From Squalus acanthias (lineage: Eukaryota): DNA of 64,000 nt. The position numbers were made by a program, and so were the translations under genes. The notes below the pieces were generated by a model. The model ran no database searches and was not told the DNA's origin. It saw only the letters and a program-made list of their open reading frames with translations. Positions 3,961-51,460 of this stretch are shown here, one piece after another. The stretch spans positions 248,001 to 312,000 of the forward strand of contig CM059426.1 in assembly GCA_030390025.1 (NCBI GenBank), read 5' to 3'. Positions within the stretch are counted from its first letter, which is position 1, and the number at the start of each line of letters is the position of its first letter.

Positions 3961-4443
3961 TAGACATTCACTCCCTAAGGATAAGAAAAAAATTGGAGTC
4001 ATCACAAATGATGAAAGCTTGGCAGTTCTGTTTTCTACTTCACAGTGGGAAGACTGTGCCCCAGACGTGTGGCAAATCTCAGGCCAACCGTTGCCAAACT
4101 ACAGAACAGTCATAGTAACTGGCCTGTCAGCAATAATAGTGTTGTCTTTTCCAAACATGTTTTCTTTGGAGTTTAGCTCCCCAGTGGGTAAATGTACCTC
4201 CCTCAGTGGTACTGAATCAAACAGACAAGAATGGTTCCGGGTTTGATTCCTGGTCTGTTCTGAGCTACCTGATCACACCCATGATGGTAATGGGATTCTA
4301 CAATTGATCACGTTAACCTGGACACAAGATGAGAGGGGGGGGGGGGGGCGTGGAAATCAGCCAGGGTTCCCACCCTTGATCCCTAGCCTTGTACCTCTGC
4401 TGAAAGGTACATCCATACAGATATCAGGAGATGGTAGGATTGG

Positions 4444-4642
4444 AATAACAGAAAACGCTGGAAAAACTCAGCAGGCCAGGCAGCATCCGTGGAGAGAGAA
4501 AGAGAGTTAACGTTTCAGGTCGATGACCTTTCGTCAGAACTGTGAAGAGCCGGAAATCAAATAGATTTAAGGCCAGAGTAAAGCTGGGAAAAGGGGGAGG
4601 GGATAAAAGAACAAAGGGGGAGATGAAGAGACATTAAGTGAT
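4444..4642 (-). mobile_element. Penelope-like family A pseudo-LTR fragment
   Basis: Homologous to 46240-46480; 13-bp TSD atggtaggattgg at 4431-4443 and 4643-4655. Confidence 0.85.
4505..4541 (-). ncRNA. Minimal type I hammerhead ribozyme motif
   Basis: Minus strand reads AGUU CUGACGA A AGGUC-auc-GACCU GAAA CG UU AACU: core intact, stems I and II pair, palindromic AACGUU stem III. Confidence 0.75.
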
Positions 4643-7019
4643 ATGGTAGGATTGGGCTTGCCTGGGATGTATCCATGGTCAAGCAGCCTCCCAGGAGTCA
4701 CTGTTAAGCCTCACAGATGAAGTTGAGGTACTAGAGGGAGCCTAGCACTCATATGATTGTACCCTAGCATCAGAAGGGGGAAAACTCAGGAATAAAACAT
4801 TTCACTTCTTTTTCCTTTGGTTTTGGATGGCATAGAGAGGTATGTCTGTCTGATTTATACACACTAAGTTCAACTGAAAGTCTCTGGGTGCATCAACTGG
4901 TTAACTTATTACCTCCTCTGTGCAGCAGCAGACTGGGATGAGGAGGGCAGCACTCAGAGTGAATGCTGGGGAAACTCAGTGTGATCCAATTGGGGCTGAT
5001 ATATGATGACGATGAAGGAGTACTTTTCCCAAGTGAAGTCAATTCTACATCACTCGACAGATTGCAAGGAAATCAGAAGCATATATTTGGTGATTTAAGC
5101 TTTGTAATGGAAAACAGATGTCTCAATGCCATTGGGGCAGGAGATATCTTCACGCCAATGAAGATAAGGTACAACTGATCCTGACAGTTGGAAGAGATCT
5201 GCATCGAACTCGACTGCTGTGGAATCCCTCCAGAGACAGTTGGAGACATGTGGAAAGATTGGGTTCGATGGCATTCCTTTGATTGCTAGATTGTGACTGC
5301 CAGTCAGTAAACATCTCAGAATGGGTTGATGCAGCTTTAAGAGAGAGTGAAGTAGGGAGAAAGAGAAAGTGCTTTGTTCAGTATAAATCACTGAACCGGT
5401 GCCTGAACTCACTGTGCTGGCTTGTAAAATGACCTGCTTTAAGAGGTTGAACGATTTTGTCACTCGTTTCGTGTCCTTTCTCTGAGGTGGGTACTGGGAC
5501 GTAATGACAGGCACAACTGAGCCTTGTTGACAGATTAATTTAGACAATATTCTGGCCCTGTCTTTGGCCCTCAGTCTGTCATCGAGCATTCAGCTGGGTA
5601 TAGATTCTTGGAAAACAGCAGAGTCCAGAGAAACTCCCGAGATCTCCACCTTCAACAGCACCAAATCTAAGCTCCTGACACCCCAAGGCAAGCAGCCATT
5701 GTTCAGTTTTGGAGACAGTTGTTTTAGTGTTTAACCAATTGCTGTTGCTGAGCTCGTTGTCATTTGCCTGGAAATAACCCCGGCGAGGAGCTCAAGCACC
5801 TGAGCCCAGTCAATGTGGAACTGTGGTTCAAACAGAAGCTTTAGTCAGTGCGGTTTTTTGAAAGGTTAAAAGGGGAGCCTCACTGTCAATACTATTTTCA
5901 AGAAACCACCAGTTAAAAAGAATTATGATTAACTTGTGTTTCTTAAGGAGTTTAAAAAAAACCTGAATGCTGATGTCATCGTCAGGGGAGCCGGTTGAGA
6001 GGATTTGCTGAGTGTGAGGGAACTGAAGTGACCTCAGTAAATCATTCATTGTAACCCCCAGCACTCCTGCAATCTTGCCATTTCAACTATGTATGTATGT
6101 TGATTCAGTTCCCTTGCTCTGGCCGGCACAGCAACTCCTCCAAGTCGATTCTTCCAATACTGACTGTCCTCGGTAATCGCTATCGAAAGCAACAGAGAAA
6201 GAAATGAAAGCAAAACAAATCTTGATGTTAACCACAAATTATAATTAAGAATCTTTCGCTCTTTTTTTGTTGAGAGCGACTTATTGAGGGTGAGATTCCC
6301 TTTTGCAACTGACCTTTTGCTTGGCTAAATGAGTTATTTCCATACTTCTAACTGCACTTTCCGTTTTGTGAAAGTGTAGGATACGGATTTATTTTTTATT
6401 TCAAAGGTCCCTTCTCTCTTACCTCCTTCGGGAAAGAGGGCTAAATACTCTCTGCAGTGGGCTGAATCATAAGCACCATCGATGGCACGCCGAGGTCGGT
6501 TATAGGAATTGCCCTTGTAGCCGGCAAGGTAACTTTCTTTGTCACCCTTTCCTTCCCCCCTCTCCCCACCCCAGCGAGCTGCAGAAAGGTGCTCGCTCCA
6601 GTCGGCTGCATGAGAACTGAACCCCTCCTCTTCTGAAGGCGCTGTCTAGCAGTGGGGGATGGTTACAAAGCTCTCTGGTGCCGCACCCACGTGGCCATGC
6701 CTGACGAGTGACTATCAGCAAGGGTATTTGATTATGGAGACAGTTCATTCGGATCGAGTCCTTACCCATTGTGTACACGTACATACTTCCCAGCTGGGGT
6801 CACTTCGCGAGTGAGGACCCTAGCTTAGTTCTCCTGCTCCTCAGCCCAATTGCTCAGAGACCAATTACAACTCTGCTACCGTTGACCCATTTCAGATCAG
6901 ACACAGCCCAGGGATCAAACATTAGAAAGAAAGACTTGCATTTATATAGCGCATTTCTTGGCCTCAGTACGTCCCAAATAAGCCAATAAAGCACTGTTGA
7001 AGTGTAGTCACTGCTGTAA

Positions 7020-8109: not shown

Positions 8110-8285
8110 AAAAAAAACCTACAAATGCTGGAAATCTGAAACAAAAACACTGCATGCTGTAAATACACAGCGCACCTGTCAGCATCCGAACAGAGGAAAG
8201 AGATGTTAATATCTGAGGCCCTGACAACGGGATTCCACCCAAATTGTTAGCCTATCTTTTCTCTTTTCAGAAGCTGACCAATCTA
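8110..8285. mobile_element. Decayed Penelope family A inverted pseudo-LTR remnant
   Basis: atgctggaaatctgaaacaaaaac... followed by partially complementary tcttttctcttttcagaagctgacc. Confidence 0.5.
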
Positions 8286-20609: not shown

Positions 20610-21297
20610 GTCAGCTGTGGCTCAGTGGGTAGCACACTTGCCTTTGAGTCAGAAGGTTGTGGGTTCAAGTCCCACTCCAGGACTTTGAGCACATAAAGCT
20701 AGGCTGACACTCCAGTGCAGTACCGAGGGAGTACTGCACTGTCAGTGGTGCTGTCTTTTGGATGAGACGTTAAACCGAGGCCCCGTCTGCTCTCTCAGGT
20801 GGATGTAAAAGATCCCATGGCACTATTTCGAAGAAGAGCAGGGGAGTTCTCCCCCGGTGTCCTGGCTAATATTTATCCCTCAGTCAACATAACAAAAAAC
20901 AGGTTATCTGGTCATTATCACATTGCTGTATGTGGGAGCTTGCTGTGCACAAATTGGCTGCCGTGCTTCCCACATTACAACAGTGACTGCACTCCAAAAA
21001 GTACTTCTACAAAAAGAAAATACTGCAGATGCTGGAAATCTGAAATAAAAACAGAAAATGCTGGAGATACTCAGCAGGTCAGGCAGCATCTGTGAAGAGA
21101 GAAAAACAGAGTTAAAGTTTCAGGTCGATGATCTGAAACGTTAACTCTGTTTCTCTCTTCACAGATGTTGCCTGACCTGCTGAGTATCTCCAGCATTTTC
21201 TGTTTTTATTCCAAAAAGTACTTCATTGGCTGTAAAACGCTTTGAGACGTCCGGTGGTCGTGAAAGGCACTGTATAAATGTAAGGCTTTCTTTCTTT
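20610..21297 (+). mobile_element. Full-length Deu-SINE interrupted by a Penelope hairpin
   Basis: A and B boxes, Deu core; the SINE resumes at 21210 after a duplicated site. Confidence 0.9.
21008..21209. mobile_element. Penelope family A inverted (palindromic) pseudo-LTR insertion
   Basis: Long inverted arms; 15-bp TSD tccaaaaagtacttc at 20993-21007 and 21210-21224. Confidence 0.9.
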
Positions 21298-21299
21298 TA

Positions 21300-21910
21300 A
21301 AGGAAAATTAGCTCGGATTCTTCACTGTGATCTCGACGGAATCACAGCGGTGAATGAAGGAAAAATGCAGGCGGTGAGGCCCAACCTGTATTTCTCTCCT
21401 CCTGCCCCTGTTGGGAACACCACTGGCTTTATCCTTTCTCACCCTTTGCATGCAAGTGCCGACAGACTTGGGTCACCATTGGATTTCCTTTGCGGCTGCT
21501 TGTGTTATGACAAAGCGGAAGGTGGCGGGTGGTCGGCCCCGGGCAGCGATGGTGACAGCCCTGAGGACCCCACATGGAGGGAGGGGGTTGGGGGGGAGCC
21601 CTGGAGCAGCCTCCTCTCCCTCCGGTCCAGCCACCAACACTTCTCAGTGACAGCTCTGGTCTTCGGCGGGCCACCCATTCCAATCTTCAGGACGCTTCTG
21701 CCCCTATAATAAGGCCCCTCACCAGTTCTTCTGGTGCAACAGCGGAGTCCTTGTTGCAGCACCATTGAGATTCTGATTTTCACACTGACGGCCCCCCCCA
21801 TTGGCGGGAATCCTGCTGAGAGACGGCTGTTCATCGCCGATGAGACATAACCCGGGAAAATGAGTCAGGATTTGGGCAGGTGGAAGGGCCACCTTTTAGG
21901 AACTTTATTC
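21300..21910. mobile_element. GC-rich repeat, possibly a decayed Harbinger-like MITE
   Basis: Abrupt GC/CpG-rich block of similar style to the other MITEs; termini not resolved. Confidence 0.35.
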
Positions 21911-41462: not shown

Positions 41463-42637
41463 CAATGTATATCTGGAGCTGGCATTGCGCTCCACCAGAG
41501 TAATGTTACCTATCTGGTGGGTCTTGCTGGCACTGGTTCAGTTGGACTGCTTTCATATTTGGCACTGTTACGCCATGGATTTGGCAGAGAACTTGCGCTA
41601 TAACCAGCGTGAATTTGCTGCCCAGTTCTTAGTATAACAACAGCATTTGGTAACACAGGATAAGTGACCTGCAGACATTGCTGTAAAATTTCCTTTAGCA
41701 CCAATGAATGTGGTTGGTGGTGTTTGTTATACAACATTTCAAACTCTTCTTATCACAGCAATTGATATTAAAAGGTGAGAAAGAAAAGCAGATTCCACTA
41801 CGAAAAATAGTTTTCTTTATCCATAAGAAGGTAGATATTACAGTAGGGTAGTACAGTAGTGTTATCATGTGATTGCTTAAAGTACTCAGATCAAATTCCT
41901 CTCCACAATTTTAAACAGGCATTAACCAGTTTTAAAATAAACAGATTAAAGTTTCTGTTTAAATAGCAACATGGAAAAGTTCAGAAAGAGACTGGAGTTC
42001 ATCTAACAGGTCCCAACCGCTCACTCCCTCCAAAATCTATCCCTTAGATTTTTCCCCACTTCCCCTACTTGGACAGTCCATTCACACATTTACCGTGCTC
42101 TACATAAACGAGTTAAATCTAAAGGCGTTAAATCTCCATGGAGCTCTCCTGATCGTGTGCAGTAACTTCAGAAAATCCAAGAAAACCCTGGAGAAACGAC
42201 TTCAACCAAAGAGACTGTATCCCTTCCTGTTTCTCAGCTCACGCCTGATTCTAGAGTTTGTGGCAATCTCCAACACATTACTAAAGAACCATAAAGGTTT
42301 ACAGAAGGAGGCTGTCAATCAAAAACTCATTCCACTGCCCCAATCTCCTTCCATAGCTCTGTATTTTCCTCTACTTCAAATATTTATTAATTATTCCCTT
42401 AAAAGATGCATTGGGCTCTGCCTCAACTGCGCCCTGTGACAAAGCATGCTATGCTCCAATGACCCTCAAAGTTATTACCTGATTTCAATTTATCTAGTCG
42501 CTAAAGAATCGTGAATATTCATTTTCTATTTTAGCTCTCCTAACTATTTTCATAACCTCCTGTACCTTGTTTTTACATTTATTTCTGTCCACTAACTTTA
42601 TACATTTGGAACAATCACTGTTTGCCCAAGTTCCTTG

Positions 42638-42850
42638 TGCTGCTTCCATCATTGCCCACATCAGTCTCTTCCCGCGGGTGCCGAATCCTCATGCTGCTTC
42701 CATCATTGCCCACATCAGTCTCTTCCCGCGGGTGCCGAATCCTCATGCTGCTTCCATCATTGCCCACATCAGTCTCTTTCCGCGGGTGCCGAATCCTCAT
42801 GCTGCTTCCATCATTGCCCACATCAGTCTCTTCCCGCGGGTGCCAAACCC
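42638..42850. repeat. 54-bp tandem repeat, ~3.9 near-identical units
   Basis: Unit tgctgcttccatcattgcccacatcagtctcttcccgcgggtgccgaatcctca starts at 42638, 42692, 42746 and 42800. Confidence 0.95.
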
Positions 42851-42997
42851 TTCAAGCTCTCTCTGTAAGGTCTACATCTCACTCTTTCATACGTCATTGA
42901 GCCACAACTTCTGGATGACTTCCCTCCCTTTTTCAGAAATGTTTCCACTGCTCCATTACATCCGCTACCCTGGCACCTGGGAAGCAACACACCATTC

Positions 42998-45834: not shown

Positions 45835-46516
45835 GGTCTCCTCTACACTGGGGAGAGCAAACACAGATTGGGTGATTGCTTTGCTGAACATCTCCATTCA
45901 GTCCCCAAGCATAACTCTGAGCTTCAGGTCGCTTGCCATTTTAATTCTCTGTCCCATTCCCACTCCCATTCCCACTCCAGCCTCTCTGTCCTTGGCCTCG
46001 TACACTGTTCTAATGAAGCTCAACGGAAGCTCAAGGAACAGCACCTCAAACTTCGATTAGGCACTTTACAACCTTCCTGACTCAACATTGAGTTCTGCAG
46101 TTTCAGATCACAGCCACTGCTCTCATTTCTTCAGACAGCAGGTGCTGGTAATGATTCTATTGTTGTCATTTGCACCTCCGCTAGACCCGTCTTTTATTTC
46201 TTTACTTGTCCCAGCACCACCCCCTTTTGCCTTGCACCATCATCCCTTTTGTCATTTAATCTCTCCTACCTTCCACCCTATCACAGACCTTCCCTTTTGT
46301 TCTTTCCTCCCCTCTCCCCCCTCCTTTCCCTGTCTCTGCACTTGCTTAAAAACCGTCACGTCTCTAACTTTTTCCAGTTCTGACGAAAGGTCAACGAGCT
46401 GAAACGTTAACTCTGTTTCTCTCTCTCCACAAACGCCGCCTGACCTGCTGAGTATTTCCAGCATTTTCTGTTTTTATTTCAGATTTCCAGCATCCGCAGT
46501 ATTTTGCTTTTGTATT
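45835..46516 (+). mobile_element. Penelope-like family A, 5'-truncated (GIY-YIG fragment plus pseudo-LTR)
   Basis: LLYTGESKHRLGDCFAEH...VACHFN...RKLKEQHL...LQP; pseudo-LTR with hammerhead motif and 3' extension. Confidence 0.88.
46376..46412 (+). ncRNA. Minimal hammerhead motif with one stem II mismatch
   Basis: AGUU CUGACGA A AGGUC-aac-GAGCU GAAA CG UU AACU. Confidence 0.65.
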
Positions 46517-46777: not shown

Positions 46778-47062
46778 TACAAAAACAAAATACTGCGGAT
46801 GCTGGAAATCTGAAATAAAAGCAGAAAATGCTGGAAATACTCAGCAGGTCAGGCAGCGTCTGTGGAGAGAGAGAAACAGAGTTAACGTTTCAGCTCGATG
46901 ACCTTATGTCAGAACTGGAAGAAGTTAGAGACGTGACAGTTTTTAAGCAAGTGCGGAGACAGGGAAAGGGGTGGGGGAGAGGGGAGGAAAGAACAAAAGG
47001 GCAGGTCTGTGATAGGATGGAAGGCAGGAGTGATTAAATGACAAAAGGGATGATGGCGTGAG
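46778..47062 (-). mobile_element. Penelope family A pseudo-LTR fragment with mutated hammerhead core (CUGACAU)
   Basis: Reverse complement of 46235-46514. Confidence 0.88.
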
Positions 47063-51171: not shown

Positions 51172-51460
51172 AAGAGGCTCCGTCTGCCCTCTCAGGTGGA
51201 CGCAAAAGATCCCACTGCACTATTTCGAAGAACAGCAGGGGTGTTCTCCCAATATTTAACCTTCAGCCAACATTAGTAAAAAAAAAGATGAACTGGTCAT
51301 TATCACATTGCTGTTTGTGGGAGCTTGCTGTGTGCAAATTGGCTGCCGCATTTCTTACATTACAACAGTGACTCCACTTCAAAGTACTTCATTGGCTGTA
51401 AAGCACTTTGGGACGTCCTGAGGTTGTGAAAGGTGCTATATAAATGCAACTCTTTCTTTT
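51172..51460 (+). mobile_element. Deu-SINE 3' portion
   Basis: cgtctgccctctcaggtggacg...gctatataaatgcaac. Confidence 0.85.

Follow-up and report, generated by a model that had tools for sequence, protein, structure and literature searches.

That endonuclease-bearing Penelope-like elements (PLEs) can insert head to head with a tail at one end and a target-site duplication (TSD) is known (PMC8557442, PMC3846280). As described for Pen2a_Av (PMC3846280) and in the legend of Fig. 2 of PMC8557442, such insertions carry an inverted, 5′-truncated copy of the pseudo-LTR (pLTR) and a one-sided tail of 30-40 nt, and the origin of the inverted pLTRs was called unresolved in PMC8557442. The pLTR is also where the promoters of PLEs (PMC2377424) and their minimal hammerhead motifs (PMC4209133) sit. 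In vitro, reverse transcription of the element PAc begins at two sites bounding the tail, and both strands are cut and extended (PMC11167929). Here we analyze a small insertion of this layout in Squalus acanthias, located at 21008-21209 of a 64,000-nt stretch (contig CM059426.1, positions 248,001 to 312,000; the window), and compare it with related hairpins throughout the genome.

Results

The insert is 202 bp long and is flanked on both sides by identical 15-bp repeats at 20993-21007 and 21210-21224 of the forward strand. Both copies of this TSD are perfect, and when the insert and one repeat copy were excised, we obtained a continuous SINE-like host repeat that aligned across the empty site to other copies in the window. 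This confirmed the 202-bp insertion with a 15-bp TSD that had been proposed from the sequence alone. The interrupted repeat lies on the plus strand at approximately 20610-21300 and is presumably an HE1-like SINE; all 133 bases of the restored site aligned to 51326-51456 with 83% identity.

Within the insert, the PLE tail (element positions 1 to ~36, the RNA's 3′ end) occupies 21008-21043 on the minus strand and is found on the tailed arm only. It is followed by the paired part of the tailed arm at 21044-21126 (minus strand, pLTR positions ~37-117), which ends in one strand of stem II, by an apex loop at 21127-21129 (no strand assigned) that corresponds to loop II of the family's minimal hammerhead, and by the tailless inverted arm at 21130-21209 (plus strand, pLTR positions ~117 to 38). 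We refer to the tail end as the outer priming site and to the outer end of the tailless arm as the inner priming site. The fold of the insert strand is stable (-96.7 kcal/mol, z = -18.3), with none of 200 shuffles as stable. Since only ~21044-21126 pairs with 21130-21209, the near-perfect long hairpin described in the sequence-only reading holds for the two arms and not for the whole insert, the first ~36 nt being a one-sided, unpaired tail. Over ~80 nt, 2 internal substitutions and an indel of 2 nt distinguish the arms, in addition to one G.T mismatch in the stem at 21117-21139. As that reading had also recognized, this apex matches stem II and the loop of the minus-strand hammerhead motif at 4505-4541, and the CUGANGA (CUGACGA) core is absent from the insert, both arms stopping short of position 127. 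The 202 bp contain no ORF. The insert is an ordinary dead stub, and a near-identical copy with the same flanks was found on another contig (C3236; L002). The tail and the start of the arm (21008-21065) each hold the same 7-nt motif inside a small predicted stem-loop, one per start site and 15-22 nt inside it; these motifs are candidate binding sites, putatively one for each subunit of a dimer.

Further members of the family are present in the window. At 4444-4642 (minus strand) a tailless copy stands alone between its own 13-bp TSDs (4431-4443 and 4643-4655); within it, the minimal hammerhead motif is complete (4505-4541). Two tailed copies at 45835-46514 and 46778-47043 lie tail to tail with 263 nt between them and are probably separate insertions; the left one extends to the endonuclease end of the ORF. 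A short degraded fragment (positions 7-68) is found at 8110-8171. The window also holds a tandem array with a 54-nt period at 42578-42901.

The family is an endonuclease-bearing PLE. Longer copies encode, in one ORF, a reverse transcriptase (RT), a cysteine-rich linker and, at the C terminus, a GIY-YIG domain, which supports the earlier identification of the insert as Penelope. The Pfam matches to RVT_1 (E 2.4e-5) and GIY-YIG (E 1.7e-4) both score under Pfam's curated cut-offs, and the two pieces overlap with 95% identity. A partial-tandem pLTR lies upstream of the ORF at 5 of 30 loci (L294, L298, L316, L321 and L322), which cross from the 5′ part of the ORF into the upstream copy. Both the insert at 21008-21209 and 168 of the 175 hairpins mapped below combine a one-end tail of 30-40 nt with an inverted truncated copy inside a TSD. 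The linker between RT and endonuclease (EN) carries C-x4-C-x2-C and a further C-x2-C ahead of the YIG motif. A Zn-finger-like cysteine motif at this place is the criterion for Neptune given in PMC8557442, and Nematis has such a linker too; by its linker, the family appears Neptune-like.

We counted element positions from the tail end on a real copy (L071), on which the predicted ribozyme cut falls at 104|105, stem II at 113-117 and 121-125, the core at 127-133 and the 5′ strand of stem I at 134-137. Positions above ~326 are approximate because L071 itself inverts near 326, which leaves the calls of the deeper arm unaffected. Across 261 hammerhead contexts in the family the 5-bp stem II is kept, with the loop variants ATC, ACA and CCA, and intact copies present the core boxes, stem II, a palindromic stem III and stem I. 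The G10.1-C11.1 pair is absent from the two commonest variants, which have A-U (70/261) or G-U (69/261) instead. No Rfam model matches this minimal hammerhead, which we recognized by motif alone and regard as a predicted minimal ribozyme. Beside the family copies of L059 (1-1420) and L316 we observed pairs of ORFs that we take to resemble a Harbinger-type transposon.

The 3.7-Gb genome contains at least 5,148 head-to-head hairpins with up to 300 nt between exact anchors, compared to 0 in the control, and exact anchors located 14,092 tail-anchored copies genome-wide. Tail-anchored hairpins numbered 556, 454, 453, 1,200, 403 and 541 in six gap bins. From each bin we mapped the first 30 places, and removal of 5 duplicates from these 180 loci left 175; figures marked as weighted were corrected for bin size. 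The sample consists of places in contig order, favors young copies through its exact anchors and leaves out tailless-tailless hairpins and gaps >500. A top-hit search with the insert as query was biased to similar junctions and was hence kept out of the counts. Apart from the dispersed hairpins, one lies inside a tandem array of at least 10 copies with a spacing of ~1-3 kb (L347-L352; G000:C5:28706699-28725186). Five others (L354, L355, L356, L359 and L363) are broken at one common point, ~105-107, by related sequence with a G-rich start, which suggests another element that targets this site.

The outer ends of the hairpins proved to be regular. The tail was on one arm alone in 168/175, on both arms in 6 and on neither in 1, and the tailless arm had its outer end at positions 33-39 in 131 of the 168. 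TSDs of 12-17 nt were found in 123/175, with a mode of 14. Stand-alone tailless insertions with a TSD begin at the same inner site at 4 of 30 loci (L429, L437, L439 and L446), as does the window copy at 4444-4642. As such copies occur singly, each within its own TSD, the inner site can likely prime without the other, in agreement with the two RT start sites and the extension of both strands seen with PAc in vitro (PMC11167929). In one full-length copy (L321; G000:C13:2254401-2257595) the cDNA ends in the upstream repeat at position 34, the tail boundary and second start site, which could reflect a collision of two RTs.

The inner ends, in contrast to a single fixed junction, ranged from 56 to >300 among the 175 hairpins. 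Of 212 unambiguous arm ends, 67 fell at 133-138 (24 at 136 and 14 at 137), 26 in stem II or its loop (113-125) and 1 at the predicted ribozyme cut (104), which 4 of the 175 loci overlap. The peak at stem II that the sequence-only reading anticipated for a map of junctions on the consensus did not appear, nor was there one at the predicted cut among the 212 ends. We also found the stop at 133-138 outside inverted structures. Among 30 tail-anchored copies chosen irrespective of inversion, 9 ended at 133-139, 5 of them without an inverted partner, and the full-length copy L322 extends across the element to position 138 of the upstream copy, where it stops and gives way to an inverted arm from 133 to 36. 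This implied that the stop is not due to inversion.

A TTAAAA-like box lies 30-33 nt upstream of the stop in 60 of 66 contexts; an initiator-like motif at 137 is imposed by the selection of contexts and gains no independent support from these 66. The base following position 137 was C in 12/19 cases, a weak hint at a cap. The stop at 133-138 may represent an RNA 5′ end near 137, likely the start of pLTR transcription. Ribozyme-cleaved RNA was rejected as the template on the counts at position 104 given above. We considered a spliced template because the stop coincides with an acceptor-like motif (U-tract-CAG) and with the end of an intron in D. virilis, whose place within the ribozyme is the same (PMC4209133). 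This too was rejected, since the 16 non-arm continuations past the stop had no shared exon sequence; no consistent splice was found at the joints shown in contigs of 4 of 24 sequencing runs, such contigs being unable to reveal an RNA start.

Within the mapped sample, the only stem II apex was that of 21008-21209 itself (1/175), and both arm ends lay within 108-126 in 8/175. Exact stem II apexes numbered 11-13 genome-wide, in both orientations, or ~0.4% of hairpins. We obtained 89 matches to a pattern describing the apex with its loop in the tailed arm. Upon inspection of 85 of these, 8 were true apexes, 33 independent matches represented a different junction, 125/132, and the remainder were other junctions or duplicates; the other 4 come from a tandem array, and none of the 6 members of it that we inspected is an apex. 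The mirror pattern, with the loop on the tailless arm, gave 12 matches comprising 3 clear and 2 interrupted apexes. For comparison, a zero-loop palindrome at 105-110 had 9 exact matches genome-wide and the 117/134 junction had 34, the latter counted without one-by-one inspection. With no peak in either the mapped ends or the genome-wide patterns, we rejected stem II as a junction hotspot. It behaves as any short inverted microhomology. The proposal that the ribozyme stem templates the inversion in general is not supported; stem II apexes are about as rare as a zero-loop palindrome that cannot fold back. At 21008-21209 itself the apex does lie in stem II, and the 5 nt paired at the joint probably came from this stem; a fold-back and two cDNAs annealing to each other would leave an identical sequence.

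We compared the depth of the two arms in 168 hairpins. The tailless arm was deeper in 98, the tailed arm in 60, and 10 were ties (weighted share of deeper tailless arms 0.59, bootstrap 0.50-0.67). For leads of ≥10 nt the counts were 74 versus 35 (p = 0.0002). Because the tail can be copied from RNA only, snap-back requires a deeper tailed arm, and a simple snap-back from a tailed cDNA cannot yield 98/168 deeper tailless arms or the fixed second outer end. In three long copies (L286, L288 and L289), the tailed arm measures at least 1.1-2.2 kb and the inverted arm 220-310 nt.

Filler bases were present at 90/175 junctions and often copy the run-off region; a symmetry test of the filler gave p < 0.05 in 4 of 38 cases, of which L277 alone was convincing. 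At the 85 insert-free junctions, loops were <3 nt in 12 and >30 nt in 26, and microhomology of ≥2 nt was found in 52, compared to 17% for random pairs. Like the unequal arms of the long copies, the loops of <3 nt and the filler speak against a simple snap-back. The two ends lay within 3 nt of each other in 36/168 hairpins, 1.8x the expectation for independent ends (bootstrap 1.3-2.3).

The two arms of a hairpin are related in other respects as well. When one arm extended past 145, the other stopped at 133-138 in 0/32 cases, versus 24/136 otherwise. Both arms were of the same subfamily in 160/164 hairpins, and two different source RNAs per hairpin were rejected as no clear inter-subfamily chimera was found. 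Rare variants common to both arms numbered 20, compared to a permuted mean of 4 (maximum 12), and 369 were private to one arm. Positions 61, 87 and 125 were discordant between arms in 11-15% of pairs, against a background of ~5%. Lastly, L277 (1475-1815; G000:C1:125673381-125673689) is a PLE-U6 chimera in which both arms carry U6 snRNA, captured at element position 111: the tailed arm has a full copy, the other arm a 3′ piece, and a short fold-back lies at the U6 5′ stem-loop. This arrangement indicates that self-templated synthesis does occur.

Discussion

The reading that we prefer, with a probability of roughly 0.6, is that 21008-21209 is an independent short PLE insertion produced by twin priming and subsequent end-joining of two cDNAs. 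Reverse transcription would be primed by both nicked target strands, by one of them at the tail end and by the other ~36 nt further in, from nicks that may lie ~14 nt apart. The two cDNAs would copy the same stretch of one template, usually as far as an RNA 5′ end near 137, the likely start of pLTR transcription, and their ends would be joined head to head via 1-6 nt of inverted microhomology or filler bases. In the case of 21008-21209, stem II likely gave the microhomology, the ribozyme being a passenger that was destroyed in the process. The observations behind twin priming are the family identity, the TSD, the one-sided tail, the two fixed outer ends, the varied inner junctions and the stop at 133-138, while the 0/32 versus 24/136 dependence, the shared subfamilies (160/164) and the rare variants (20 versus 4) favor one shared template. 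Also in favor of twin priming are the stand-alone tailless insertions that begin at the inner site, the more frequently deeper tailless arm, the loops of <3 nt and >30 nt, the 9 zero-loop palindromes, the unequal arms of the long copies, the filler at 90/175 junctions and the priming of PAc at two sites and on both strands in vitro (PMC11167929). The near-symmetric excess of ends (1.8x, 36/168) and the self-templating in L277 count against twin priming. The shared rare variants and the 0/32 result would be equally expected had one arm been copied from the other, and later deletion at hairpin centers could distort the asymmetry in arm depth.

The hairpins might alternatively have arisen if both nicks primed at the two fixed sites and one cDNA then ran off the RNA 5′ end, folded back wherever a local microhomology allowed it, copied itself and annealed to the short cDNA of the other nick. 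Such a course would account for the fixed outer ends and either arm being deeper, for the microhomology of ≥2 nt at 52/85 insert-free junctions versus 17% at random, and for the shared rare variants, the 0/32 dependence, the symmetric excess and L277. We nevertheless think it rather unlikely, given the 0- to 2-nt loops at 12/85 junctions, the kilobase offsets between arm ends in long copies and the fact that stem II, which offers a fold-back hairpin of 5 bp, is not preferred. Far less credible is the account of the sequence-only reading, in which the ribozyme templates the inversion because a single tailed cDNA, folded back on stem II of the hammerhead, primes its own second arm. Self-priming at palindromic junctions has been proposed for rotifer PLEs (PMC3846280), the geometry of 21008-21209 is suitable (a stem of 5 bp and a loop of 3 nt, the latter in the tailed arm), and the 8 exact apexes of this type are, by a rough estimate, a few-fold above independent ends. 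Yet the stem II apex accounts for ~0.4% of hairpins and its one sampled case is 21008-21209 itself, the forbidden mirror type occurs, the 125/132 and 117/134 junctions are each ~3x as common, and the fixed second end and deeper tailless arms are left unexplained. As a general cause it has already failed, and we hold the account to be very improbable; with some self-priming seen in L277, a fold-back may nonetheless have taken place at 21008-21209.

Long perfect palindromes are unstable, and the hairpins might have been symmetric to ~136 when inserted and have lost their centers later by cruciform instability, with which the frequent end of the deeper arm at 133-138 (42% weighted) agrees. One-sided losses of ≥40 nt would then be required in 47/168, joint filler often copies the run-off region and near-perfect palindromes persist, which leaves this history improbable. 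We give next to no credence to a MITE-like unit amplified from one master. Some junctions do recur exactly, but recurrent junctions are present in both subfamilies, and junctions vary widely over the 175 loci. For the family as a whole, we rejected a MITE on the variable junctions, one-sided tail and ~14-bp TSD, as opposed to a fixed unit of constant internal sequence with a short TSD; with their own TSDs and varied junctions, the hairpins are independent insertions, as the sequence-only reading had preferred over a single master.

Twin priming might even be the normal route of PLE integration, a generalization that we offer only tentatively. One RT would lead from the inner site and a second would trail it from the tail end, on opposite target strands but along the same stretch of a single RNA. 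Of the two, the leading RT would more often reach the capped 5′ end, which lies just upstream of the ribozyme, and run off there; the cDNA 3′ ends would then be end-joined. If true, two-site priming on one RNA would explain at once why there is a tail, an inverted pLTR and a TSD. The value of the locus lies in numbers, as thousands of independent mini-insertions provide predictions that could be tested in the in vitro system already at hand (PMC11167929): inversion should require both start sites, both arms should derive from one template, and the run-off point should be the RNA 5′ end, neither the ribozyme cut nor stem II.

Among described systems, the insert resembles insertions of the Pen2a_Av type in its head-to-head inverted copy, one-end tail, TSD and pLTR hammerhead motif. 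It differs in that both arms are cut to ~120 nt without an ORF and in that junction statistics can be drawn from thousands of copies. Palindromic junctions are taken as self-priming in PMC3846280, while our data favor two priming events. The hammerhead of the family is like the minimal type I hammerheads that metazoan PLEs carry (PMC4209133) in its CUGANGA box, extra base after position 9, stem II and GAAA, and in the palindromic minimal stem III and 4-bp stem I of intact copies; unlike them, it has A-U or G-U rather than G-C at 10.1-11.1, and 21008-21209 lacks the core.

With the Poseidon element PAc of Anolis in vitro (PMC11167929), the family shares two start sites bounding the tail and the use of both strands. 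Uncleaved RNA is the main template of PAc, and 1/212 unambiguous ends is at the predicted ribozyme cut here. Unlike PAc, the family has a cysteine-rich, Neptune-like linker, and the available text of the PAc paper offers no model for how the inverted arm is joined. The available part of bioRxiv 10.64898/2026.07.22.740005 likewise contains nothing on inversion. By the titles and opening lines of abstracts, in a search whose coverage excludes most subscription papers, we found no application of twin priming to PLEs. A further parallel is the twin or dual priming of L1 (PMC2837659), in which a second-strand nick primes an inverted cDNA and TSDs and variable microhomology at the inner joint are found. 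L1 twin priming copies non-overlapping parts of the RNA from a variable internal site, whereas here the second site is fixed and the arms overlap, which makes the product a palindrome.
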